Below are positions 1 through 15,000 of a stretch of DNA of 16,313 nt, in pieces. How positions within the stretch are numbered: position 1 is the stretch's first letter; each line of letters begins with the position of its first letter. The stretch lies in IMG/VR virus record IMGVR_UViG_2609459861_000002, positions 1 to 16,313 of that record; one strand, given 5' to 3'. The position numbers and the translations under genes were made by a program. The notes beneath the pieces are model-generated. The model searched no databases, was not told the origin of the DNA, and saw only the letters and a program-made list of their open reading frames with translations. The stretch is from a virus (Duplodnaviria; Heunggongvirae; Uroviricota; Caudoviricetes).

Positions 1-1254
1 ATGCTGGAACAAATGGGCATTGCCGCGAAGCAAGCCTCGTATAAATTAGCGCAACTCTCCAGCCGCGAAAAAAATCGCGTGCTGGAAAAAATCGCCGATG
101 AACTGGAAGCACAAAGCGAAATCATCCTCAACGCTAACGCCCAGGATGTTGCTGACGCGCGAGCCAATGGCCTTAGCGAAGCGATGCTTGACCGTCTGGC
201 ACTGACGCCCGCACGGCTGAAAGGCATTGCCGACGATGTACGTCAGGTGTGCAACCTCGCCGATCCGGTGGGGCAGGTAATCGATGGCGGCGTACTGGAC
301 AGCGGCCTGCGTCTTGAGCGTCGTCGCGTACCGCTGGGGGTTATTGGCGTGATTTATGAAGCGCGCCCGAACGTGACGGTTGATGTCGCTTCGCTGTGCC
401 TGAAAACCGGTAATGCGGTGATCCTGCGCGGTGGCAAAGAAACGTGTCGCACTAACGCTGCAACGGTGGCGGTGATTCAGGACGCCCTGAAATCCTGCGG
501 CTTACCGGCGGGTGCCGTGCAGGCGATTGATAATCCTGACCGTGCGCTGGTCAGTGAAATGCTGCGTATGGATAAATACATCGACATGCTGATCCCGCGT
601 GGTGGCGCTGGTTTGCATAAACTGTGCCGTGAACAGTCGACAATCCCGGTGATCACAGGTGGTATAGGCGTATGCCATATTTACGTTGATGAAAGTGTAG
701 AGATCGCTGAAGCATTAAAAGTGATCGTCAACGCGAAAACTCAGCGTCCGAGCACATGTAATACGGTTGAAACGTTGCTGGTGAATAAAAACATCGCCGA
801 TAGCTTCCTGCCCGCATTAAGCAAACAAATGGCGGAAAGCGGCGTGACATTACACGCAGATGCAGCTGCACTGGCGCAGTTGCAGGCAGGCCCTGCGAAG
901 GTGGTTGCTGTTAAAGCCGAAGAGTATGACGATGAGTTTCTGTCATTAGATTTGAACGTCAAAATCGTCAGCGATCTTGACGATGCCATCGCCCATATTC
1001 GTGAACACGGCACACAACACTCCGATGCGATCCTGACCCGCGATATGCGCAACGCCCAGCGTTTTGTTAACGAAGTGGATTCGTCCGCTGTTTACGTTAA
1101 CGCCTCTACGCGTTTTACCGACGGCGGCCAGTTTGGTCTGGGTGCGGAAGTGGCGGTAAGCACACAAAAACTCCACGCGCGTGGCCCAATGGGGCTGGAA
1201 GCACTGACCACTTACAAGTGGATCGGCATTGGTGATTACACCATTCGTGCGTAA
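1..1254 (+). CDS. proA: gamma-glutamyl phosphate reductase (glutamate-5-semialdehyde dehydrogenase)
   Basis: Full-length 417-aa ORF; I recognise the translation as enterobacterial ProA. Window begins at its start codon. Confidence 0.97.
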
Positions 1255-1368
1255 ATAAAACCGGGTGATGCAAAAGTAGCCATTTGATTCACAAGGCCAT
1301 TGACGCATCGCCCGGTTAGTTTTAACCTTGCCCACCGTGATTCACGTTCGTGAACATGTCCTTTCAGG

Positions 1369-1444
1369 GCCGATATAGCTCAGTTGGTAGAGCAGCGCAT
1401 TCGTAATGCGAAGGTCGGAGGTTCGACTCCTCTTATCGGCACCA
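1369..1444 (+). tRNA. thrW: tRNA-Thr, anticodon CGU
   Basis: Cloverleaf readable by eye: acceptor GCCGATA/TATCGGC, D-arm GCTC..GAGC, anticodon stem GCGCA/TGCGA with loop TTCGTAA (anticodon CGT), T-arm GGAGG-TTCGACT-CCTCT, 3' CCA encoded. Sits directly after proA as thrW does in E. coli. Confidence 0.93.
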
Positions 1445-1458
1445 TTTAAATCAATAAG

Positions 1459-2622
1459 TTACACATCATTAGTACCTTCCTTATTTTTTGACTGGGACAA
1501 ATTTGGGACCGATGGGTTCAGGATCGAGTCTATTTGCCGTGCGTGTTCGGTAAGGTGATTAGGTGCGAGGTGAGCATATCGACGAACCATTTCGATAGAC
1601 TCCCAGCCTCCCATTTCCTGTAACACTGACAACGGGACACCGGCTTGAACCAGCCAACTTGCCCAGGTGTGTCTCAAGTCATGAAATCTGAAATCATCAA
1701 TACCAGCTCGTCTCAGCGCCGCTTTCCAGGCTGTGTTTGCGTCATACCGCATCTTCCTGACTGTTGGCGCTTTCGTTCCGTCTGGTTTGGTACAGCTTTC
1801 CTTGTACACAAATACCCAACGGTGATGATTCCCGATTTGTTTTTTCAATACGCGACATGCAGTATCATTCAGCGCAACGCCAATTGCGCGGTTTGATTTA
1901 CTCTCTTCCGGGTTTATCCATGCCACCCGGCGCTGCATATCTATTTGTTGCCATTCAAGGTTGATGATGTTCGAGCGTCTTAAGCCTGTTGCCAGTGCAA
2001 ATTCAACAACAGACTTTAATGGCTCCGGACATTCATCAATCAGCCTTTGTGCTTCATGGGGCTCCAGCCAGCGGATCCGTTTATTCTTTGGTTGAGGCAC
2101 TTTAATAATTGGTGCCTTATCCAGCATTTTCCATTCACGCTCTGCGGCTCTTAGTAGGGCCTTTATAAATGAAAGATGCGTAGCCTTCGTTGCAACGGAC
2201 GCTGGTTTTGGCGTGTATTCTGGAACAGGTTTCCCTTTTTTTCTGCATGCTTCTGCCCTGAGTTTCCAGTTTTCCTCATGACGCCGGTTCGTCATTTTCT
2301 GCATTGCTGAATAAATTTTTGATTCAGTGATGTCTCTTAGTTGCATCCCTGCGAAATGTTGAAGCCAGAATCCGATCCGGCTTTTGTCATCGTCCAGTGA
2401 TTTCTTATGTGCTTTCTCTTCGAGCCACCTGACACACGCTTCCTCAAACGTCATATCAGGTATTTCACCAAGTTTGCTGACCCGCCATGCTTCAGCCTTT
2501 AGCTTGTCATGGAGCTCTGTCGCCTGCCTTTTGTCCTTTGTTCCAAGAGACTGTTTAAATCTTTTACCGTTCGGCAATGTGAAACTGGCGTACCATATTT
2601 CACTTCTGCGGAAGAGTGACAT
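1459..2622 (-). CDS. int: phage tyrosine integrase (lambdoid Int family)
   Basis: 387-aa ORF beginning [27 protein letters not shown], which I recognise as the IntD/IntF-type prophage integrase of E. coli; C-terminal HDLRHTWAS (HxxR) and RRYAHL (catalytic Tyr region). Stop codon lies 15 nt from the tRNA CCA end. Confidence 0.93.
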
Positions 2623-2849
2623 TTTCTTTCCTCTGTTATGCCATCACCCGCGCTCACCTTGATAGTATGCAGCGGAGACTGAAGCGCCGCAATGCAGGCT
2701 TGTCGCGTTGTGAGGTAAGGAGATTTTGGTTTAGTGGGGTCTTTGCGTGTTGCCTGTAGGCGGCCTGTTCGTATCCAGTTGGTGGCGGTTGGTCTGGATA
2801 TCTTAAGAAACTGACAGGCCTCATCGAGTGTGAGGCTGTATGATTCCAT
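2499..2849 (-). CDS. xis: excisionase / AlpA-type helix-turn-helix protein
   Basis: HTH-like segment [29 protein letters not shown] at 2849 is preceded by GAGG with 5-nt spacing; the longer track ORF starts at an upstream GTG. Lies immediately upstream of int, and its 3' end overlaps the int 5' end by about 120 nt, so one of the two ends is uncertain. Confidence 0.65.
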
Positions 2850-3099
2850 GGTTACCTCTGCTTTTTGAACGCATGTCACGTAACTTCTTAATGTGTTCTG
2901 CCGTTTCGATCTCTTCTGCTATCCGATCTGCATCAGCTTTATTCACAGGTTCAAAGTCATGATTAAAGCGGAACATGCTGGCGATACATGTTCTGCCTTT
3001 TCGGATGTAGTGAACTTTGTTGTGGGTAGAACGCAGGATTTTGCAGGGAGTGCCGTGGTGGTCGACGTACCAGGTGTTAGGAAAAATGATTCTGAACAT
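2821..3099 (-). CDS. hypothetical phage protein (92 aa)
   Basis: ORF with protein-like composition; ATG at 3099 preceded by GAGGT at 5-nt spacing; overlaps the xis start by 29 nt as in compact phage operons. Family not recognised. Confidence 0.5.
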   Translation of the reverse strand: MFRIIFPNTWYVDHHGTPCKILRSTHNKVHYIRKGRTCIASMFRFNHDFEPVNKADADRIAEEIETAEHIKKLRDMRSKSRGNHGIIQPHTR

Positions 3100-3146
3100 T
3101 TTTACACCTCAGTTGGACGATGTTGAAATTTGCTGCTTTGAGGCCA

Positions 3147-3365
3147 TCACAGTCCCCATTGTTTGTTCTTAAGTTCGATCTCCTCCTGGCAACTTGCACA
3201 AGTCCGACAACCCTGAACAGCCAGGCGTCTTCGCTCATCTATCGGATCGCCACACTCACAACAATGAGTTGCGGATACAGTCTGGTAGTTCAGACGACGC
3301 ATTTTTATTGCTGTATTGCGCTGTAATTCTTCGATTTCTGATGCTGAATCAATGATGTCTGCCAT
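3147..3365 (-). CDS. TraR/DksA-family C4 zinc-finger protein
   Basis: 72-aa ORF with CCECGDPIDERRRLAVQGCRTCASC, i.e. CxxC-(17)-CxxC, at the C-terminus; size and motif spacing match phage and plasmid TraR homologues. Confidence 0.8.
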   Translation of the reverse strand: MADIIDSASEIEELQRNTAIKMRRLNYQTVSATHCCECGDPIDERRRLAVQGCRTCASCQEEIELKNKQWGL

Positions 3366-3418
3366 CTTCCATTAATCCCTGAATTGTTGGTTAATACGCT
3401 TGAGGATGAATGCGAACA

Positions 3419-3443
3419 ATAAAAAAGGAGCCTGTAGCTCCCT
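3419..3443 (-). terminator. candidate intrinsic terminator downstream of the 3464-3679 ORF
   Basis: On the minus-strand RNA: stem GGAGC/GCUCC (extendable by a G-U and an A-U pair), loop UACAG, followed by UUUUUUAUUG. Confidence 0.4.
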
Positions 3444-3463
3444 GATGATTTTGCTTTTCATGT

Positions 3464-3679
3464 TCACCGTTCCTTAAAGACGCCGTTTAACATGCCGATC
3501 GCCAGGCTTAAATGAGTCGGTGTGAATCCCATCAGCGTTACCGTTTCGCGGTGCTTCTTTAGTACGCTACGGCAAATGTCATCGACGTTTTTATCCGGAA
3601 ACTGCTGTCTGGCTTTTTTGATTTCAGAATTAGCCTGACGGGCAATGCTGCGAAGGGCGTTTTCGTGCTGAGGTGTCAT
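3464..3679 (-). CDS. hypothetical phage protein (about 71 aa, start uncertain)
   Basis: C-terminal 71 residues from MTPQHENALRSIARQ are protein-like; the upstream in-frame extension to 3778 is Cys/His-rich and less convincing. No strong SD at any candidate start. Confidence 0.4.
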   Translation of the reverse strand: MTPQHENALRSIARQANSEIKKARQQFPDKNVDDICRSVLKKHRETVTLMGFTPTHLSLAIGMLNGVFKER

Positions 3680-3755
3680 TGAACAAGTCCCATGTCGGCA
3701 AGCATAAGCACACAGAATATGAAGCCCGCTGCCAGAAAAATGCATTCCGTGGTTG

Positions 3756-4133
3756 TCATGCAGCCTCCCGACGGGCAAGAATCCTTGAGCCGAACGCCAT
3801 CAACTCTCCACGATCAACGGTCGTAAAGTGGCAGTGTGTACGGGGGTATGGGTGCCAGATAATGAGCATCGAACCTTTATTATTTCCACTGACGGGTTTC
3901 TCAGTGAGTGGGTTAATAAATGCCAGTCGTCCTGCCGTGATGAATCTGACCTCACTGGCGGTTTGTATCGCTTCATGAAACCATCCGACAGATGTGTCAG
4001 CAGGCAATAACATTACACATCCCACACTACTGAATTTGTTTTCAGTGGCTGCCTTTTTCACAAAAGGGGAAATATTGCTGTATGGTGGATTCAACCAGAC
4101 ATAACCAGAGGCATATCTGGCTGAAAGAGGGGG
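3756..4133 (-). pseudogene. phage N6-adenine DNA methyltransferase (Dam family), 5'-truncated
   Basis: Translation contains the NPPY catalytic motif followed by MLLPADTSVGWFH..EVRFI.GRL.F.NP, as in phage Dam-type methyltransferases. Only 13 codons precede NPPY before an in-frame stop at 4134-4136, and there is no ATG; the track start is a TTG at the NPPY codon. The N-terminal part expected in this family is absent. Confidence 0.6.
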
Positions 4134-4143
4134 TTATTAAGGC

Positions 4144-4506
4144 GTGAATACCTACAGTATCACATTACCCTGGCCTCCGAGCAATAATCGCTATTACCGC
4201 CATAATCGCGGGCGCACGCACGTCAGTGCAGAGGGGCAGGCATACCGCGATAACGTCGCCCGAATCATTAAAAGCGCAATGCTGGATATCGGCCTGGCTA
4301 TGCCTGTGAAAATCCGCATTGAGTGCCACATGCCGGATCGCCGTCGCCGTGACCTGGATAATCTGCAAAAAGCCGCTTTTGACGCACTCACTAAAGCAGG
4401 TTTCTGGCTGGATGATGCTCAGGTCGTTGATTACCGCGTTGTGAAGATGCCTGTTACCAAAGGTGGGAGGCTGGAACTGACCATCACCGAAATTGGGAAT
4501 GAATGA
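4144..4506 (+). CDS. rusA: crossover junction endodeoxyribonuclease RusA (Holliday junction resolvase)
   Basis: 120-aa [27 protein letters not shown]...; I recognise it as nearly identical to E. coli prophage RusA. GTG start with GAGGGGG upstream. Confidence 0.93.
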
Positions 4507-4643
4507 TGTTTGAGTTTTATATGGCAGAACTTCTTCGCCACCGCTGGGGGCATCTGCGCTTATATCGTTTCCCCGGTTCTGTTTTGACCGATTACCGAAT
4601 ACTGAAGAATTACGCCAAAACCCTGACAGGAGCAGGAGTATGA
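4503..4643 (+). CDS. ylcG: YlcG-like small phage protein (46 aa)
   Basis: Hand translation from the ATG overlapping the rusA stop (ATGA) gives [46 protein letters not shown], matching the small gene that follows rusA in DLP12-type prophages. Below the ORF-track size cutoff. Confidence 0.65.
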
Positions 4644-4728
4644 AGTCAGAGATAACAATCAACTAATACTGTTTTGTTGATTTTTGCTTGTAATTGGCGT
4701 TCTGGTCTGATTTTTGTGGAGTAAGTTG

Positions 4729-5112
4729 ATGCGTGATATTCAGATGGTTCTTGAGCGTTGGGGAGCGTGGGCGGCTAATAATCATGAAGATGTGACCTGG
4801 TCGTCCATTGCCGCCGGTTTTAAGGGATTAATTACTTCAAAAGTAAAATCTCGCCCGCAATGTTGTGACGATGACGCGATGATTATTTGCGGGTGCATGG
4901 CCCGTCTGAAAAAGAACAACAGCGATTTGCACGATTTATTAGTAGATTATTATGTAGTCGGTATGACATTCATGTCACTGGCAGGTAAGCATTGCTGCTC
5001 TGATGGTTATATCGGGAAAAGGTTACAGAAGGCTGAGGGCATAATTGAAGGGATGTTAATGGCATTAGATATCCGGTTAGAGATGGATATCGTTGTTAAT
5101 AACTCTAATTAA
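4729..5112 (+). CDS. late-gene antiterminator Q (Q82/QuuD type)
   Basis: 127 aa from the ATG at 4729 ([22 protein letters not shown]...), with Cys clusters [12 protein letters not shown] and HCC typical of the Q zinc-binding fold; sits between the rusA/ylcG nin remnant and the lysis genes. Confidence 0.85.
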
Positions 5113-5145
5113 TATGCCAATTGTTTACTAAAAATTATTAAAAAT

Positions 5146-5163
5146 GGGGCGTTGAGACGCCCC
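5146..5163 (-). terminator. intrinsic terminator downstream of the porin gene
   Basis: Stem GGGGCG/CGCCCC with 6-nt loop; on the minus strand it is followed by AUUUUUAAUAAUUUUU. The plus-strand side is A-rich, so it is not a plus-strand terminator. Confidence 0.5.
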
Positions 5164-5301
5164 CAAAAATAAAGGGTAATATATAACAGAAGGTTTATAT
5201 AGTTAGAAGCAAGGTTGTGCTTCTAAAGGAAGGGGTTGGGGGGAGCCCTTTATATGGGGGGGAGGCACCGCCCCCCGCAACATATCTTTTTCGTAATCAG
5301 A

Positions 5302-6399
5302 TTAGAACTGGTAAACCAGACCTACAGCAACGATGTCATCAGTGCTTACACCGAGTGCTTTAGTGAAGTCATTTTTGTCAAGCAGGTTGATTTTGTAATC
5401 AACGAAAGTAGACATATTTTTGTTGAAGTAATAGGTTGCACCTACATCAACATATTTGACTAAGTCCTGATCGCCCCATACTCCAAGATCCTTACCTTTA
5501 GATTGCAGGTAAGCAACGGACGGACGCAGACCGAAATCGAACTGATATTGTGCAACAGCTTCGAAGTTTTGGGCTTTATTAGCAACGAAGTGATCAGCAA
5601 ATACAGTCATATTCTGGGTTTCAGAATAGGTAGTGGCCAGGTAAATGTTGTTAGCGTCATATTTCAGACCTGCGGCCCAAACTTCTGCATTTTTACCGGA
5701 AGCAAATACTTCAGGAAGAACTTTCCCTGCATTAACTTGAGTGTCGGTACGATCAGATTTCGCATAAGTTGCACCGATACCGAATCCTTCGTATTCATAG
5801 GTAGCAGAGAAACCGAAGCCATCACCGTTACCTTCAGTGTAGTTATCGAAATCGCTACGATCGTTTTTGCCTTGGTACTGAGCAGCAAAGTTCAGACCAT
5901 CAACCAGACCAAAGAAGTCGTTGTTACGATAGGTTGCAACACCAGTTGCACGTTGAGTCATGAACACGTCGGTTTGAGTCCAAGTGTCACCACCGAATTC
6001 TGGCAGGACGTCAGTCCACGCACCGATGTCGTATGCTACACCGTAGTTACGGCCGTAATCGATGGAGCCGTAGTCACCGAATTTCAGGCCAGCGAAGGCA
6101 AGACGGGTTTTATCTTTGGAGGAACCTTGAGATTCAGCGCGGTTGCCTTTGAATTCATATTCCCACTGACCGAAACCAGTCAGTTGATCGTTGATTTGGG
6201 TTTCACCTTTGAAGCCAAGACGGGCATAAGTAGTATCACCATCATCTGCATCATTAGAGGAGAAGTAGTGCTTAGCATTAACTTTCCCGTACAGATCCAG
6301 CTTGTTACTGTCTTTATTATAAATTTCAGCTGCCTGAGCAGACATCGCCATCAGTACTGATGCAGCTACAGCAGAAATTGCCACTGTTAATTTTTTCAT
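5302..6399 (-). CDS. nmpC: outer-membrane general porin, prophage-encoded (NmpC/Lc/OmpC family)
   Basis: 365-aa ORF with signal peptide [30 protein letters not shown], porin-like Gly/Tyr/Asp-rich beta-barrel composition and C-terminal YQF. I recognise the N-terminal mature sequence as the NmpC/Lc-type phage porin. Intact, with no IS disruption. Confidence 0.93.
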
Positions 6400-6940
6400 C
6401 GTGAGCCCTTTTTTTTGAACTATTATTAAAAAATGATGTCACTGCGCGATAAATATTCATCTAATCAATGTGATTATTTCAAGATGTAAGTTTTGGTTTC
6501 TCGTTTGATTTGTGAAGTAGATCTCTATTTTTATCTGAACTTTTTTCTATCGAATCCTATTCATAGCTCTTGGCTGAATAAAAATAAATCTATTAGCCAA
6601 TTTATATTAACGGCTGTTATTTATAAGTGCTCTATAATTTGAAGATTCAATTTAAATCGGCTAAAAATAACACTGGAAATTATTTGTTAGTTATTTGTTG
6701 AGGTTTTCTTATGTATTTGTGGTGGTGTTTTGAACACTCGGTAGCATTCTCATAAATATCATTCAGTGGTTTACGTACGTAAAAAATTGGTTATGCTGTT
6801 AAGAGTGGTTACTTCGTCACACAGCTTAAACCCGCCGTCGAGCTGGTTTTTCCATTTTTTGAGTCTCGATATTAGCTGATAACTCAATACCTGAGTTATT
6901 CACTGACTCCGAGTCTGTTACGTTTCTGCTTTTTTGCGAT
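6400..6940. promoter_or_regulatory. AT-rich upstream region of the porin gene; may also hold plus-strand late-operon signals
   Basis: About 540 bp of strongly AT-rich non-coding DNA with A/T tracts, of the kind found upstream of enterobacterial porin genes. No specific sites assigned. Confidence 0.3.
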
Positions 6941-6988
6941 ACGTTGTATTCCCTCAATTTACACCCGCTTTGTCTGCGAGGTGGGGTT

Positions 6989-7204
6989 ATGAAATCCATG
7001 GATAAGTTAACAACGGGTGTCGCCTATGGCACCTCAGCAGGTAGTGCCGGTTACTGGTTTTTACAGCTGCTCGATAAAGTCACGCCCTCACAGTGGGCGG
7101 CAATAGGTGTGCTGGGTAGTCTGGTATTTGGCTTGCTGACGTACCTGACAAACCTTTATTTCAAGATTAAAGAAGATAAGCGCAAGGCTGCGAGAGGTGA
7201 ATAA
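6989..7204 (+). CDS. class II holin (phage 21 S-type pinholin) with dual-start motif
   Basis: 71 aa, [26 protein letters not shown]...: two predicted TMDs, Met1-Lys2-Ser3-Met4 dual start, charged C-terminus; GAGGTGGGG SD 2-10 nt upstream. The longer track ORF starts at an upstream TTG. Confidence 0.9.
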
Positions 7205-7701
7205 TGCCTCCATCATTACGAAAAGCAGTTGCTGCTGCTATTGGTGGCGGAGCAATTGCTATAGCATCAGTGTTAATCACTGGCCCAAGTGGTAACGATG
7301 GTCTGGAAGGTGTCAGCTACATACCATACAAAGATATTGTTGGTGTATGGACCGTATGTCACGGGCATACAGGAAAAGACATCATGCTCGGTAAAACGTA
7401 TACCAAAGCAGAATGCAAAGCACTCTTGAATAAAGACCTTGCCACTGTCGCCAGACAAATTAACCCATACATCGAAGTCGATATACCGGAAACAACGCGC
7501 GGCGCTCTTTACTCATTCGTTTACAACGTGGGTGCTGGCAATTTCAGAACATCGACGCTTCTTCGCAAAATAAACCAGGGCGATATCAAAGGCGCATGTG
7601 ATCAGTTACGTCGCTGGACATATGCTGGCGGTAAGCAATGGAAAGGTCTCATGACTCGTCGTGAGATTGAGCGTGAAATCTGTTTGTGGGGTCAGCAATG
7701 A
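7204..7701 (+). CDS. SAR endolysin (T4-lysozyme-fold muramidase, phage 21 R-type)
   Basis: 165 aa; N-terminal Gly/Ala-rich weakly hydrophobic SAR segment [20 protein letters not shown] followed by the lysozyme motif GLEG..Y.D..G..T; start overlaps the holin stop (TAATG). Confidence 0.93.
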
Positions 7702-8159
7702 ACAGAGTAACCGCGATTATCTCCGCTCTGGTTATCTGCATCATCGTCGGCCTGTCATGGGCTGTTAATCATTACCGTGATAACGCCATTACCTACAAAG
7801 CCCAGCGCGACAAAAATGCCAGAGAACTGAAGCTGGCGAACGCGGCAATTACTGACATGCAGATGCGTCAGCGTGATGTTGCTGCGCTCGATGCAAAATA
7901 CACGAAGGAGTTAGCTGATGCGAAAGCTGAAAATGATGCTCTGCGTGATGATGTTGCCGCTGGTCGTCGTCGGTTGCACATCAAAGCAGTCTGTCAGTCA
8001 GTGCGTGAAGCCACCACCGCCTCCGGCGTGGATAATGCAGCCTCCCCCCGACTGGCAGACACCGCTGAACGGGATTATTTCACCCTCAGAGAGAGGCTGA
8101 TCACTATGCAAAAACAACTGGAAGGAACCCAGAAGTATATTAATGAGCAGTGCAGATAG
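7698..8159 (+). CDS. Rz i-spanin
   Basis: ATG at 7698 overlaps the endolysin stop (ATGA); N-terminal [21 protein letters not shown] then a charged coiled-coil-like periplasmic domain; closely resembles lambda Rz. Confidence 0.9.
7918..8100 (+). CDS. Rz1 o-spanin lipoprotein (embedded in Rz, +1 frame)
   Basis: 60-aa ORF wholly inside Rz; lipobox LVVVGC, proline-rich mature region [13 protein letters not shown]. Confidence 0.85.
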
Positions 8160-8190
8160 AGCTGCCCATATCGATGGGCAACTCATGCAA

Positions 8191-8484
8191 TTATTGTGAG
8201 CAATACACACGCGCTTCCAGCGGAGTATAAATGCCTAAAGTAATAAAACCGAGCAATCCATTTACGAATGTTTGCTGGGTTTCTGTTTTAACAACATTTT
8301 CTGCGCCGCCACAAATTTTGGCTGCATCAACAGTTTTCTCCTGTCCAATTCCCGAAACGAAGAAATGATGGGTGATGGTTTCCTTTGGTGTTACTGCTGT
8401 CGGTTTGTTTCCAACAGTAAACGTCTGTTGAGCACATCCTGTAATAAGCATTGCCAGAGCGGCAGAAAACAACATTTTTTTCAT
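8191..8484 (-). CDS. bor: Bor lipoprotein (serum-resistance-associated moron)
   Basis: 97 aa from MKKMLFSAALAMLITGC (lipobox ITGC); I recognise it as lambda Bor-like. Opposite orientation to the lysis genes, as in lambda. Confidence 0.9.
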   Translation of the reverse strand: MKKMLFSAALAMLITGCAQQTFTVGNKPTAVTPKETITHHFFVSGIGQEKTVDAAKICGGAENVVKTETQQTFVNGLLGFITLGIYTPLEARVYCSQ

Positions 8485-9341
8485 CTTATTATCCTGTATT
8501 GTTAAAAACAGCAGAATCCTATGTGACAACAATTAAACGATAGTTAAATGGATTGATGAAAATTAAAACTATATAGGTGTACGGTCAGACTATTGGAGGT
8601 AGTCTGGATTTGAATGTCAGTGTGTTGTCGGCATTATGGCAATGCAATTTGGATAAAGCGGGGATTAAAAAGATAGAGGCGAGCCGGTCAGGTAGAAATG
8701 AATCAGGCTCAAAGTGAAGCGGAAAAGGTCTTTGGCACAAACTGATGCTGCCATAATTACAGCCTGATGACTTGTGGAATGAAACATGTTGAACCTCCTT
8801 AATTGATGTTATTCGAGTGAGGAAGGCATTCTGTCCTCCTATACTGTCCAGTAAATCAAACAGGAAGCTTGTCTCACGTGTGAGACAAGCCTCTCCATTA
8901 GCGAGTTGTATTGATCACAACTCTTCAAAGAATTCATTACTGGGTAGATGAAAATAGTTTCACGATGAATGGAGGAGGCTATGTTGGTGGCTTCTTCATT
9001 GGAGTACATATGCCCCCACGAACCCCAAAAACCTGCCGTGTTCGCGGCTACCGCAATACCACCACAGATCCGTCAGGCTATTGCAAAAGCCACAAAAGCG
9101 AAGGCTGGAAGCAATACAAGCCGGGCCAGTCCTGTCATCAGCGCGGTTATGGTTCGCGGGGTTGTCCCTCATGCTCGCCAGTCCTGTGCGGGGGGGGGAA
9201 GAAACAGGACACTCACACAGATTTTTGTGGGTCGATGCTATTCCTTTCTGGATTATCCCGATGCCATTCATGCAAGGGCTGTATCAGACGTTCGTCATGG
9301 CTGTCAGGCTGACGGGTCCTCCCGGTGGGGGGGCCTGCCAC

Positions 9342-9528
9342 GGGGCGGGAGCGTCGCGGAAAAAGGCTAGTTTTTGCATTTTTATCGGCCACCATCATCT
9401 TTACATCTTATTGATTATTAATGATTATTTGTTTTTTGTATGTCGAATTGCGTGTTTTTTGTTCGACATCGAACGCGTTTTCTTAAAGTTGTTCGCACGA
9501 TGCATGTTTAAAGCTCTCCGGAGGAAAT
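9342..9528. other. candidate cos region (cosN-like core followed by A/T-rich cosB-like segment)
   Basis: CGGGGCGGGAGCGTCGCGG at 9341-9359 matches the lambda cosN core as I remember it (CGGGGCGGCGACCTCGCGG) in both flanks, differing in the central 5 nt; followed by an A/T-rich stretch with repeated TTCGA/TCGAA motifs, directly upstream of the small terminase gene. Confidence 0.4.
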
Positions 9529-10020
9529 ATGGATCATGAGTTGAAAAACCTGGTGCTGAATATTAATCAACTGGCGGCTTTATCTGGTCTGCACCGCCAG
9601 ACTGTCGTGGCAAGACTGAAAAACATTCGTCCCGCTGGTGGACATGACAAACTCAAGCTATACCGGTTGACCGATATTCTGACTGAATTTATGGGGTTAC
9701 CACCGCCGGTTGCTGAGGGCGAAATGGATCCACATGAACGCAAAGCCTGGTATCAGTCTGAACGTGAGCGTCTTAAGTTCGAACAGGAAACGGCACAACT
9801 CATTCCGGCCAGTGATGTCAGACGGGAGTTTGCCATCTGGGCAAAAGCGGTCGTGCAGGTGCTGGAGACATTACCGGATATTCTGGAACGTGACTGCGGC
9901 CTGCAGCCTGCTGCTGTGAGCCGTGTTCAGTCCATTATTGATGATCTGCGCGATCAGATAGCCCTGCGGGTGACCGAAGCAGGTGCGGATGATGAGGAGG
10001 AATTACAGCAGGAGGAGTAA
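9529..10020 (+). CDS. terminase small subunit (Nu1 family)
   Basis: 163-aa ORF with N-terminal HTH-like segment LNINQLAALSGLHRQTVVARLKNI and acidic C-terminus; stop overlaps the start of the large-terminase ORF (TAATG), the standard Nu1-A arrangement. Confidence 0.8.
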   Translation: MDHELKNLVLNINQLAALSGLHRQTVVARLKNIRPAGGHDKLKLYRLTDILTEFMGLPPPVAEGEMDPHERKAWYQSERERLKFEQETAQLIPASDVRREFAIWAKAVVQVLETLPDILERDCGLQPAAVSRVQSIIDDLRDQIALRVTEAGADDEEELQQEE

Positions 10021-11312
10021 TGCTGAATCAGGAAACCGCAAAGGCAGCACGAACCGATTCAGGTTATATCCTTCGCGCACCGAGACGAATGCGGGTTGCT
10101 GATGCCGTTGCTCAGTATATGCGAGTGCCCATGGGGGCCGGGAACTCAGTCCCGTGGGATCCGCTGGTGGCACCGTATGTTCTTGAGCCGATGAACTGCC
10201 TGGCCTCGCGTGAATACGACGCAGTGATATTTGTTGGTCCGGCACGAACCGGCAAGACTATCGGCCTGATTGACGGCTGGGTGATTTACAACGTGATTTG
10301 CGATCCTGCGGATATGCTGATCATTCAGATGACGGAGGAAAAAGCCCGCGAACACTCCAAAAAACGACTTGCCAGAACGTTTCGCGTCAGCCCGGAAGTG
10401 GTCAGTCGCCTGAGTCCGAACAAAAATGACAACAACGTTTATGACAGAACATTCCTTGCTGGCAACTACCTGAAAATCGGCTGGCCGTCAGTCAATATCA
10501 TGTCCTCATCAGATTATAAATGCGTGGCGCTGACGGATTATGACCGTTTTCCGGAAGATATTGATGGCGAGGGGGATGCCTTCTCTCTTGCCTCAAAACG
10601 TACCACCACATTTATGTCCAGTGGTATGACGCTGGTGGAGAGTTCCCCCGGCAGGGATGTGAAGGATGTGAAATGGCGACGGACTTCACCGCATGAGGCT
10701 CCACCAACCACGGGGATACTGTCGCTCTATAACCGTGGCGATCGCCGTCGCTGGTACTGGCCCTGTCCACACTGTGGTGAGTATTTTCAGCCCTGCGGCG
10801 ATGTGGTTGCTGGTTTCCGTGATATTGCCGATCCCGTGCTGGCAAGTGAGGCGGCTTATATTCAGTGTCCTTCCTGTTCAGGACGGATTATGCCTGAACA
10901 AAAACGTGAGCTGAACGGACGTGGGGTCTGGTTGCGGGATGGTGAATCCATCAATGCGGATGGCAGTCGTTATGGTGATCCCCGACGCTCACGTATTGCG
11001 TCATTCTGGATTCCACCCATTATCTTTAACGGAATAGCGTATAGCGATCCGGGAAGTGGTAATAACCCGGGAGGTACAAGATACACGGGTTATGGTTTTG
11101 AAGTTCGCAAAAACGGTGTATTAATCGCATCCAGAGAAACTAAAGGGGCCATTCCCGGTAGCTACAGTGCGGTTATTGATATGCCGAGTGGCAGGGGAAG
11201 CGTCACTCTGGAGTTTAAGGTTTTCCATAAAGGCAATCAGTGGGCAGGTAATATCACCGACTGTACGGTGATTGTGACCAAAAAAGCTGCTTCCGGCATC
11301 AGTATTCGTTGA
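10020..11312 (+). pseudogene. terminase large subunit (gpA family), N-terminal ATPase region only, fused in frame to about 100 unrelated codons
   Basis: Residues 1 to about 330 carry gpA-like landmarks (P-loop VGPARTGKT, CPHCGEYFQ zinc motif, GVWLRDG). Lambda gpA is about 640 aa; here the ORF ends at 430 aa and its last 100 residues do not resemble terminase. A hairpin-plus-T6 terminator and lom follow, which is the position of the J 3' end in lambda. Confidence 0.7.
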
Positions 11313-12045: not shown

Positions 12046-15000
12046 ATGGCAGTAAAGATTTCAGGTGTACTGAAAGACGGCGCAGGTAAACCGGTACAGA
12101 ACTGCACAATCCAGCTGAAAGCAAAACGTAACAGCACCACGGTGGTGGCGAACACGGTGGCCTCAGAAAATCCGGATGAAGCCGGGCGTTACAGCATGGA
12201 CGTTGAGTACGGTCAGTACAGCGTTATTCTGTTGGTGGAAGGCTTCCCGCCATCGCATGCCGGGACCATCACCGTGTATGAAGACTCACAACCGGGTACG
12301 CTGAATGATTTTCTCGGTGCCATGACGGAGGATGATGTCCATCCGGAGGCACTGCGCCGCTTTGAACTGATGGTGGAAGAGGTGGCGCGTAACGCGTCCG
12401 CAGTGGCGCAGAACACAGCAGCCGCGAAGAAGTCAGCCAGCGATGCCGGCACATCAGCCCGTGAGGCGGCAACCCGTGCAACTGATGCTGCAGGCTCAGC
12501 ACGTGCAGCCAGCACGTCAGCCGGACAGGCCGCTTCGTCGGCTCAGTCAGCGTCTTCCAGCGCAGGAACGGCATCAACAAAGGCCACTGAAGCATCAAAA
12601 AGTGCTGCCGCTGCAGAGTCTTCAAAAAGCGCGGCAGCCACCAGTGCCGGTGCAGCGAAAACGTCAGAAACGAATGCCGCAGCATCACAAAAATCTGCGG
12701 CCACTTCTGCATCCACCGCGACCACGAAAGCGTCAGAAGCTGCCACCTCAGCCCGGGATGCGTCGGCTTCAAAAGTGGCGGCAAAATCATCAGAAACGAG
12801 CGCAGCCTCGAGCGCCGGCAGTGCAGCTTCCTCGGCAACGGCGGCAGGAAATTCCGCGAAGGCCGCAAAAACGTCTGAGATGAATGCGGATAACAGCGCA
12901 CAGGCGGCAGCAGACTCACAAACTGCATCGGCAAATTCCGCGACAGCAGCCAAAAAATCAGAAACCAACGCGAAAAATAGTGAGTCAGCAGCAAAGGTCA
13001 GCGAAACCAACGCTAAAGCGTCAGAGAACAAGGCGAAAGAATATCTCGACAAGGTCGGGGGACTCGTCAGCCCGATGACGCAATACGATTGGCCCGTTGT
13101 TACTGGTAATGAGTCTTTTTACATAAAGATCGCGAAACTTTCCGATCCCGGAAGCAACAATTGCCATGTAACGCTAATGGTTACTAACGGCGGTGACTAC
13201 AGCTCCCCTTACGGAAACATTGACTTTATCGAGATCTCGGCGCGCGGTCTGCCTTCTTCGCTTACTGCTGATAATGTATCTCGTTACCTGAGTATACGCC
13301 GTTTAGGGCCAACCGGGCTAATCAATAGCATGCAAATGCGTTACGGCCTGGTTAAAGATGATGGCTTTATTGAGGTTTGGGCCTTCCAGCGTGCATTTAT
13401 CAACGGCGCAAAGGTTGCGGTACTGGCGCAGACGGCACGCACGGAATTATACATTCCAGACGGATTTGTTAAGCAAACCGCCGCGCCTTCTGGATATGTT
13501 GAAAGCCCCGTTGTAAGGATTTACGACCAGTTAAACAAGCCGACTAAAGCAGATTTGGGCCTTTCTAATGCTATGCTTACAGGCGCTTTTGGTCTTGGCG
13601 GTAGCGGTCTTGTTTTGGATGGTAAAATGACCGATAAGGAACTACTACAAGAGCTAAGGGCGAAAGGTGGGTGTTTCTGGAGGTCAGGAAAACCAACAGG
13701 TAGCGAATCAACAATTTTCAGCCACGGTTCTGGTATATTCTCGCGGTGCGGCGATACGTGGTCAGCTATTAATATCGATTACGAAAGCGGTAGAGTAAAG
13801 ATTTACTCTAGTAACGATAATAGACTCAACAATGGTACTTTTAACATAAATGAGCTATACGGAACCAAATACAAGCCGTCGAAATCGGATGTTGGACTTG
13901 GTAACGTAACTAACGATGCGCAGGTGAAAAAATCCGGCGACATTATGTCAGGTGATCTGTCGATCACTAAAGCAACACCTTCACTATACCTGCGTTCAAA
14001 AAGTGGAACCGCCCATGTATGGTTCCAAAATGAGGATCAGTCGGAACGCGGCGTTATTTTTGCGCCTACAAATACTGATACGCTTGGCGAAGTTCACATC
14101 AGGGCTAAAAACGCAAAAGGTCAATCAAGTGGTGATTTTATTGTTCGTCACGACGGGATGGTTGAAGCCCGTGATCTCACATTAGCGGGTAAAACTAAAG
14201 GCGCAAAAGCAGAATTTGCAAACACAAGCACTAGCTCCGATGATACTACGGTAAGCATAAAAGGATCTCAGCATACTCCTCTGGTTTTAACGCGCAACAA
14301 CACAATTAAAAATTTATCCATTGGGTTTAAGGTTGATGACGTTGACCAAAAATATCTCGGCATATACGGTGACGGTGATTTGTATTTTGGTGGTTATTCT
14401 GACCACACAAAAAACAGCAAAGTAATTACACAAGCAATACTCGATAGCGGGGTAACGGTAGGCGGCAAAACAACATTTTCTGACCTTGCCACATTTAACG
14501 CAGGTATGTCTGGGCCTATCGAGCCGGAAGCCATTGAAGGCATGACTATCGATCTTAATGACCTTATCATTAAGTTCACGGATAAAGGTTCAGTTAAATA
14601 CTATCACTGCAAAACTGCCGGAGGCGGTTCGAATATTACCAATAAGCCTGACGGCGTAGGCGGCAACTTTTTGCTTCGTGTAGAGTCAATTCGTAAGGTT
14701 AGTGATTCAGATTATATAAACATGCAAACGCTGATTAGCGGCGACAAAGGACGCGTGCATGTTCGTTTTGTTACTAATGGTAATTGGACAGCATGGAGCG
14801 AGCATGTTGTTTCAGGATGGAATCAGGATGTGACCGTCAGGTCGTTAACCTCGACGACTCCATCAAAATTAGGCGGCGGGCGTGTTGATGTGCTGGGGAG
14901 TACGTCAGATTACAGTAGTATGAATTGTGCTGTGCGCGGTGTTGATAGCACTGGAACCAATTCGGCGTGGTCAGTAGGTACATCGAAAAACACGGGAAAA

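Follow-up and report, generated by a model that had tools for sequence, protein, structure and literature searches.

Overlapping open frames and G tracts beside a lambda-like cos site in a defective prophage: a probable recombination scar

The window, meaning the whole 16,313-nt stretch of viral DNA analysed here (IMG/VR record IMGVR_UViG_2609459861_000002), contains a region crowded with open reading frames (ORFs) between a bor/iss lipoprotein gene and two terminase genes (Table 1). Three plus-strand ORFs overlap one another and two more lie on the minus strand, and all five are present in the ORF list, as the original prediction had described. The three homopolymers it picked out, a C5 run and the G9 and G7 tracts, are located at the positions it gave. 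The prediction placed the region upstream of the cos site, which is imprecise as the last 50 bases of the region contain cosQ and cosN themselves. It also held that the region does not represent five genes, and this is agreed; the overlapping ORFs are accidental open frames over DNA made up of junk and cis sites.

Table 1. Features of the region and its neighbours, in window coordinates.
Feature	Position	Strand	Basis or remark
bor/iss lipoprotein gene, left neighbour	8191..8532	-	ORF; relatives annotate 'increased serum survival lipoprotein Iss'
Rz1 remnant	about 8589-8717		'Rz1 lytic protein, partial' by PGAP at the corresponding position of MS 85-1 and SCU-118
SfIV right-end homologue, Rz1 3' end through intergenic DNA to HNH 5' half	8598..9156	+	megablast
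ORF, 133 aa	8911-9312	+, frame 1	
ORF, 133 aa	8969-9370	+, frame 2	
ORFs	8996-9271 and 9213-9398	-	
Stub of an SfIV-type zinc-ribbon HNH endonuclease gene (codons 1-50), pseudogene	9010..9159	+, frame 1	tblastn, PHROGs, PGAP
C5 run	9013-9017	+	
ORF, 152 aa	9081-9539	+, frame 3	
Recombination joint, 15 bp microhomology CGCGGTTATGGTTCG	9142..9156		alignments
Conserved non-coding block upstream of cos, carries G9	9142..9210		
G9 tract, rare derived allele of interrupted GGGGGTGG (8 nt)	9190..9198	+	
Non-coding right-end DNA of mEp460-type phages, up to cosQ	9211..9313		~86% identity to mEp460 right end
cosQ GGGTCCT, packaging-termination signal	9314..9320	+	aligned to lambda right end
cosQ-cosN spacer, 19 nt, holds G7	9321..9339	+	
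G7 tract	9327-9333	+	
cosN, predicted 12-nt 5' cohesive end GGGCGGGAGCGT	9343..9354	+	nick 9342/9343
AT-rich cosB-like leader, 34.5% GC, 174 bp	9355..9528	+	inverted repeat ATGTCGAA/TTCGACAT at 9440-9447 / 9462-9469
Small terminase subunit, DUF1441 family	9529..10020	+	Pfam DUF1441 E 4.6e-44; phrog_141 (terminase small subunit) E 2.7e-77
Truncated large terminase fused to tail-tip protein J C-terminal domain	10020..11312	+	Pfam GpA_ATPase residues 41-304; Ig_GpJ_C residues 350-429

The original prediction took the open frames as a signature of GC-rich DNA. The GC content of the region is only 54-59% compared with 48% for the window, so GC content alone does not account for them. TAA, TAG, and TGA are absent from all plus-strand frames at 8966-9310, a run of 344 nt that is the longest of its kind in the window. 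This length was reached in none of 500 whole-window and none of 2,000 local dinucleotide shuffles, in which the mean maximum was 103-147 nt. The stretch is statistically unusual, and the only explanation offered for it is chance combined with ascertainment by the reader who first singled out the region. A length so far beyond the shuffle expectation counts against the main explanation of the region set out below. In close relatives, single-base differences create TAA or TGA inside the 344-nt stretch and the intact HNH gene of Shigella phage SfIV has an off-frame TGA at nt 57, so the openness is a property of this allele and is not conserved.

The stub of an HNH endonuclease gene is the only stretch of the region that is homologous to a protein of known function. 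A tblastn search with SfIV gp54 as query matched residues 1-50 to the stub with 84% identity (E 2.9e-28), and residues 51-116 gave no significant match in any frame of the window. The Pfam HNH domain (PF01844), the catalytic beta-beta-alpha-metal part characterised by His-Asn-His and [CxxC]2, occupies residues 66-112 of SfIV gp54, and no Pfam HNH match was found in the five window ORFs. A permissive translated search for this catalytic half (word size 2, E up to 100) returned only noise in 9157-9400 and elsewhere in the window. PHROGs likewise recognises the N-terminal part only, through a match of phrog_144 (HNH endonuclease) to the frame-1 ORF. In the records of five E. coli relatives, NCBI's PGAP pipeline labels these 150 bp 'HNH endonuclease, incomplete, missing C-terminus' and calls no gene from there to the small terminase. 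The record of one of these five relatives names the 150-bp pseudogene DUF8602.

Group 1 HNH enzymes carry an N-terminal zinc ribbon of the form CxxxxC ... CxxH, as described by Xu & Gupta (PMC3592412). The ribbon in the window reads CRVRGY...GYCKSH, in which the second Cys of CxxxxC (Cys14) is replaced by Tyr, while the HNH proteins of SfIV and E. coli E10 keep CRVRGC. Judged from its sequence, the stub is a decaying, dead gene fragment without a catalytic domain. The C5 run encodes the Pro-Pro of a conserved Met-Pro-Pro-Arg (MPPR) start that is also found in the intact gene, and the frame-1 homology crosses the run without a change of frame; C5 is not a slippage site. The original prediction of a gene inactivated by slippage at homopolymers holds for the dead gene and fails for the cause, as the gene breaks off at a recombination joint behind codon 50 and no frame contains its catalytic half.

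The position of this joint can be read from alignments on either side. Megablast aligns window 8598-9156 to SfIV 38939-39496 at 85.7% identity. The window tracks the HNH genes of SfIV and E. coli SCU-118 up to 9156, and tracks the phages mEp460 and 2B8 from 9142 onwards. The overlap, CGCGGTTATGGTTCG, is common to the HNH gene and to the cos-proximal block of the mEp460/2B8 type. SCU-118 harbours the same proA-thrW prophage, with 98.4% identity over window 1-9155, where the match stops. It retains the HNH gene to codon 91, followed by a different deletion. In SfIV the intact HNH gene is the last annotated gene and stops 58 bp short of the linear record's right end; the distance from the end of the stub to the cos nick in the window is 183 bp. 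The region is very probably a prophage recombination scar, in which a dead HNH stub is joined to non-coding right-end DNA ending in cos. It would represent a mosaic joint inside a defective lambdoid prophage that occupies the proA-thrW site, with a non-functional piece on one side and a non-coding one on the other.

The right-hand piece ends in a cos site of the lambda type. Lambda's right end (...ACGGGTCCTTTCCGGTGATCCGACAGGTTACG) can be aligned to 9311-9342, and its GGGTCCT, 23 nt from that end, is retained in the window. This 7-bp cosQ is reported to be strongly conserved in lambda-like phages (PMC4669245). The last base of the linear Tritos phage record corresponds to window position 9342. 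Position 9343 corresponds to the first base of that record and of the cdtI record, both of which open with GGGCGGGAGCGTCGCGG. Taking the ends of these phage records at face value, the nick falls between 9342 and 9343. The context of cosN reads ACG/GGGCGGGAGCGT/CGCGG, with conserved CG flanks and a predicted overhang of 12 nt. The left half of this cohesive end, GGGCGG, is the same as that of lambda (GGGCGGCGACCT), and the right half differs from lambda at bp 7, 8, 9, and 11. Differences at bp 7-12 of the cohesive end are common in the lambda-like group (PMC4669245). Together, the record ends and the lambda alignment agree with the published rules for lambda-like cos sites (PMC4669245). A literature search for the cohesive-end 12-mer gave a sole match, which was unrelated.

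The site shares with the lambda-like cos sites of lambda, 21, N15, and Gifsy-1 the cosQ sequence, a spacer of ~20 nt, CG-flanked nicks, and the GGGCGG left half, as well as the small and gpA-type large terminase genes downstream. It differs from lambda in its spacer, which is 19 nt rather than 20 and G-rich, and in its small terminase, which is of the DUF1441 type here and Nu1 in lambda. Nearly all homologues have a 19-nt spacer, most commonly with GGGGTGG at the place of the G7 tract, and with GGGGGGG, GGGGGCC, GGGGGTC, CAGTGTG, and others also present. Its length is conserved and its sequence is not. To the right of cos, the leader is a putative TerS/IHF binding region as judged from its position. 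With the cosB-like leader followed by a DUF1441 small terminase and a gpA-type large terminase, this side of the joint belongs to a packaging type that, like that of lambda, has no HNH partner.

Relatives carry a full-length large terminase gene. In the window the gene is truncated to its ATPase domain and fused to the C-terminus of gpJ, so the prophage is defective and this copy of cos is unusable by its own prophage.

The DNA between the stub and the cos nick is not annotated as a gene in the E. coli relatives. In mEp460 the annotation includes gp59, an 83-aa hypothetical protein whose ORF extends across cosQ and cosN. One alternative is that a real small gene of the mEp460 gp59 or phrog_17397 type spans the conserved block and cos, and is broken in the window. 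An uninterrupted ORF of this kind occurs in 29 unique 219-bp homologues (62 instances); phage records annotate it, and PHROGs has a family for it. That a gp59-like ORF stays open across the block and cos in these mEp460-type homologues counts against the main explanation of the region. The pattern of variation, however, is not that of a gene: variable sites number 29/25/32 at codon positions 1/2/3 in the gp59 frame, and the synonymous fraction in this frame is 0.27 against a random expectation of 0.23, with no excess of third-position or synonymous change. Across 9211-9313, no codon-position bias was found at variable sites in any frame, and homologues differ by 1-nt indels. The conserved positions cluster in blocks that coincide with the cis sites (cosQ and cosN) and do not follow a codon pattern. 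Further, the 5' end of the ORF varies between lineages, PGAP leaves it uncalled in the five E. coli relatives examined, and cleavage at cos would split the gene in virion DNA. It is concluded that 9157-9342 is not protein-coding. A small real gene is very unlikely.

The original prediction traced a coding path from frame 1 to frame 2 to frame 3, with switches at C5, G9, and G7, and this path was not borne out. Compared with the gp59 ORF of mEp460, the window shifts by +1 at the G tract, by -1 near 9233, and by -1 near 9279. The latter two changes lie away from any homopolymer, and at G7 there is no frame shift. A single gene broken by frameshifts at C5, G9, and G7, which restored tract lengths would turn into one long ORF, could account for the three long overlapping ORFs and for the one of three gp59 frame changes that does fall at the G tract. 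It would also fit phrog_17397, a family of unknown function that matches the window in two pieces, the first in frame 3 and the second in frame 2. Against it, the HNH homology stops at the recombination joint with the rest of the protein unmatched, C5 sits in frame within the MPPR start, and G7 and the common allele are equally long. The remaining frame changes do not coincide with homopolymers, and the gp59-like ORF has no coding bias and crosses both cosQ and cosN. The frame-hopping gene is not real, and a single gene broken by frameshifts at the homopolymers is highly improbable.

The G9 tract is unusual, as the original prediction had noted. It is the longest homopolymer in the window, for which base composition predicts ~0.06 runs of at least G9. 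A G7 tract is nothing unusual, at 0.87 runs per window on the same basis. Among 127 homologous instances from IMG/VR and reference loci, 110 carry the interrupted GGGGGTGG, five carry G9, two G8, and one G10, with single substitutions making up the rest. A set of 80 loci picked solely by the small terminase protein gave the same picture. The exact G9 allele occurs in only two of 1,028 complete E. coli records with the block, and neither G8 nor G10 was found on the same flanks in the complete E. coli records surveyed. Nearly all of the E. coli matches listed span one base fewer than the query, corresponding to the 8-nt tract.

Uninterrupted tracts occur on two backgrounds, and their length varies on both. 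G9 and G10 alleles with the HNH stub differ by 0-3 flanking bases, and on the other background both G8 and G10 occur. In the survey of 127 instances every G9 allele also carries G7, forming one haplotype. G7 itself is a T-to-G variant of GGGGTGG without a change in length. A survey of tract lengths across isolates had been proposed with the original prediction; its outcome is variation from G8 to G10 among the few uninterrupted alleles and an unchanged length at G7. The G9 allele probably arose from GGGGGTGG by loss of the interrupting T together with a one-base slip. Loss of this T makes the run either length-unstable or error-prone in sequencing, and some of the recorded tract lengths may be homopolymer sequencing errors.

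The run of nine Gs and the length polymorphism of 8-10 among close relatives with the uninterrupted tract recall contingency loci of the Neisseria/Haemophilus type. It had been predicted that the locus may be a slipped-strand mutable switch, and G9, alone or with G7, could in this case switch a gene or promoter such as the terminase genes or a small ORF. The occurrence of G8, G9, and G10 on near-identical backgrounds, when the interrupted allele is almost always 8 nt, and the compositional rarity of G9 are both as expected of such a locus. The locus differs from known contingency loci, however, in that the tract is linked to neither a gene nor a promoter and the population overwhelmingly carries an interrupted, stable version. 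The tract lies in non-coding DNA, outside any supported gene and in no ORF with a conservation signal. No promoter or terminator was found at the tracts, and the sole promoter-like site is at 9400-9428. As neither a supported gene nor a promoter-like site was found at G9, nothing is there to be switched, and G9 does not qualify as a contingency locus. The interrupted 8-nt tract occupies more than 99% of the homologous places in complete E. coli genomes, among the matches listed, making the mutable state an exception that is not maintained. In addition, 19 of the 80 phages that share the small terminase lack the block, possible sequencing errors affect some of the lengths, and the prophage here is defective. 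The claim of a switch was not upheld and a contingency function is highly improbable. The G9 tract is passively slippage-prone and controls nothing.

The block that carries G9 is conserved. It was found in 1,025 of 5,426 complete E. coli genomes (about a fifth) and also in lambda-type phages, among them 2B8 and 4C10. The phages that carry it have lambda-type as well as other cohesive ends, and four different cohesive-end sequences go with it. The block sits 121-170 bp upstream of the nick, except in three instances at a distance of about 355 bp. Among phages with unrelated flanks the block is ~91-94% identical, a value inflated by survey patterns that fixed part of its sequence. A 7-bp inverted repeat, GTCCTGT (9181-9187) and ACAGGAC (9204-9210), flanks the G9 tract. 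Conservation of the block amid unrelated flanks counts against the main explanation, as it could mean function rather than junk.

It may be that 9142-9210 is a functional cis element, for example a protein-binding site aiding packaging or late transcription, with the G tract in a variable centre. The identity between phages with unrelated flanks, the distance to the nick, and the presence of the block in a fifth of E. coli genomes would be consistent with this. Against this, lambda itself lacks the block, and it is present in 61 of the 80 loci chosen by small terminase and missing from the other 19. Variants in the arms of the inverted repeat break pairs or turn them into wobble pairs, with no compensatory change. 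RNA folding at the G tract gave no signal (z-score 0.06). Searches of Rfam found no family, either in the whole window at the gathering threshold or in 8400-9700 at E up to 10, where the only match, below threshold, was to an lncRNA model without structure. No match was obtained for the loci of mEp460, 2B8, and Tritos. Given these results and the inflated conservation, a cis element is unlikely, and the block is probably without function. The cis-element reading would leave the rest of the main explanation untouched. There is a small chance that the block is an undescribed cis element of packaging or late expression, tuned by a central G tract that has become slippage-prone in a minority of lineages, or else that the gp59/phrog_17397 ORF is real and expressed only from circular or concatemeric DNA.

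The usual place of HNH genes also speaks for the main explanation. HNH genes adjoin cos and terminase genes, and gp74 of HK97 stimulates cos cleavage by terminase (PMC3592412, PMC9410871). HK97-type phages need an HNH protein for cos cleavage while lambda encodes none (PMC9410871), which fits the stub as the leftover of a packaging-module swap. The stub resembles the packaging-associated HNH proteins, such as HK97 gp74 and SfIV gp54, in its 50 residues, which match the N-terminus of SfIV gp54, and in its place directly upstream of cos and the terminase genes, and has kept the ribosome-binding site and MPPR start. It differs from them in the deletion of the catalytic HNH domain, in the change of the zinc ligand Cys14 to Tyr, and in the terminase beside it, which is of the lambda gpA type and not the HK97 type. 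It is a pseudogene and not a functional member of this group.

The direction and mechanism of the exchange are suggested by these comparisons. Microhomology-mediated or short-homology recombination would have replaced the 3' part of the HNH gene together with the original packaging module. An HK97/SfIV-style module, which needs an HNH partner, would in this way have given place to a lambda-style module without one, with the HNH stub left behind.

Every component of the scar is of a known kind and the finding is an ordinary one, which matters little beyond annotation. It illustrates that overlapping ORFs and homopolymers can mimic a frameshifted gene where the DNA is a pseudogene stub fused to cos. 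The G9 tract shows on a small scale that a run can become length-unstable once an interrupting base is lost. For this prophage family, the coordinates of the cos site are fixed, with cosQ at 9314-9320 and the nick at 9342/9343, and the scar would stand as a record of a packaging-module swap through 15 bp of microhomology inside an HNH gene.

The G9 tract sits in a conserved ~70-bp non-coding block. It is kept 5' of cos in phages that differ in their cohesive ends and its flanks are unrelated among them. It occurs in 1,025 of the 5,426 complete E. coli genomes and forms the 3' end of a ~300-bp module common to phages mEp460 and 2B8. Downstream of cos lies a cosB-like leader, which carries a tandem TTATTGATTA/TTAATGATTA at 9408-9427 and an 8-bp inverted repeat, ATGTCGAA/TTCGACAT, at 9440-9447 and 9462-9469. 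These leader repeats are possible binding sites for the small terminase or IHF.

Features of the cos region and terminase remnant
Feature	Position	Remarks
~70-bp non-coding block	9142-9210	Conserved upstream of cos; also in comparison loci L002, L009 and L011
cosB-like leader	9355-9528	AT-rich, 34.5% GC
Large terminase-J fusion ORF	10020-11312	gpA ATPase domain, residues 41-304; J C-terminal domain, residues 350-429

The Rz1 remnant is separated from the HNH stub, the first 50 codons of an SfIV-type endonuclease gene, by DNA that includes a perfect palindrome (8864-8893; 13-bp stem, GAAGCTTGTCTCACGTGTGAGACAAGCCTC). This palindrome gives a terminator-like score on the minus strand only. Comparison of 8540-9010 with loci L003 and L006 revealed that in some relatives (MEI008, R11) the interval from bor/iss to the HNH stub is longer by ~287 bases, which are absent from the window. 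This difference is a further indel within the same decaying region.

The window opens with proA followed by a tRNA (1369-1441), labelled tRNA-Thr in the annotation of a relative, and this region (1-1441) is the thrW attachment site. Use of thrW by SfIV and other serotype-converting phages of Shigella would fit the SfIV-like remnants deeper in the window.

In the tail-fibre region, the plus strand contains a 288-nt stretch free of any stop triplet (12588-12876), the second-longest such stretch on that strand of the window.

The ATPase domain of gpA is the sole part of the large terminase left in the fusion ORF, where an in-frame junction links it to the receptor-binding domain at the C-terminus of the tail-tip protein J. 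One deletion removed the remainder of the terminase along with the head and tail genes, and the proA-thrW prophage is therefore defective.
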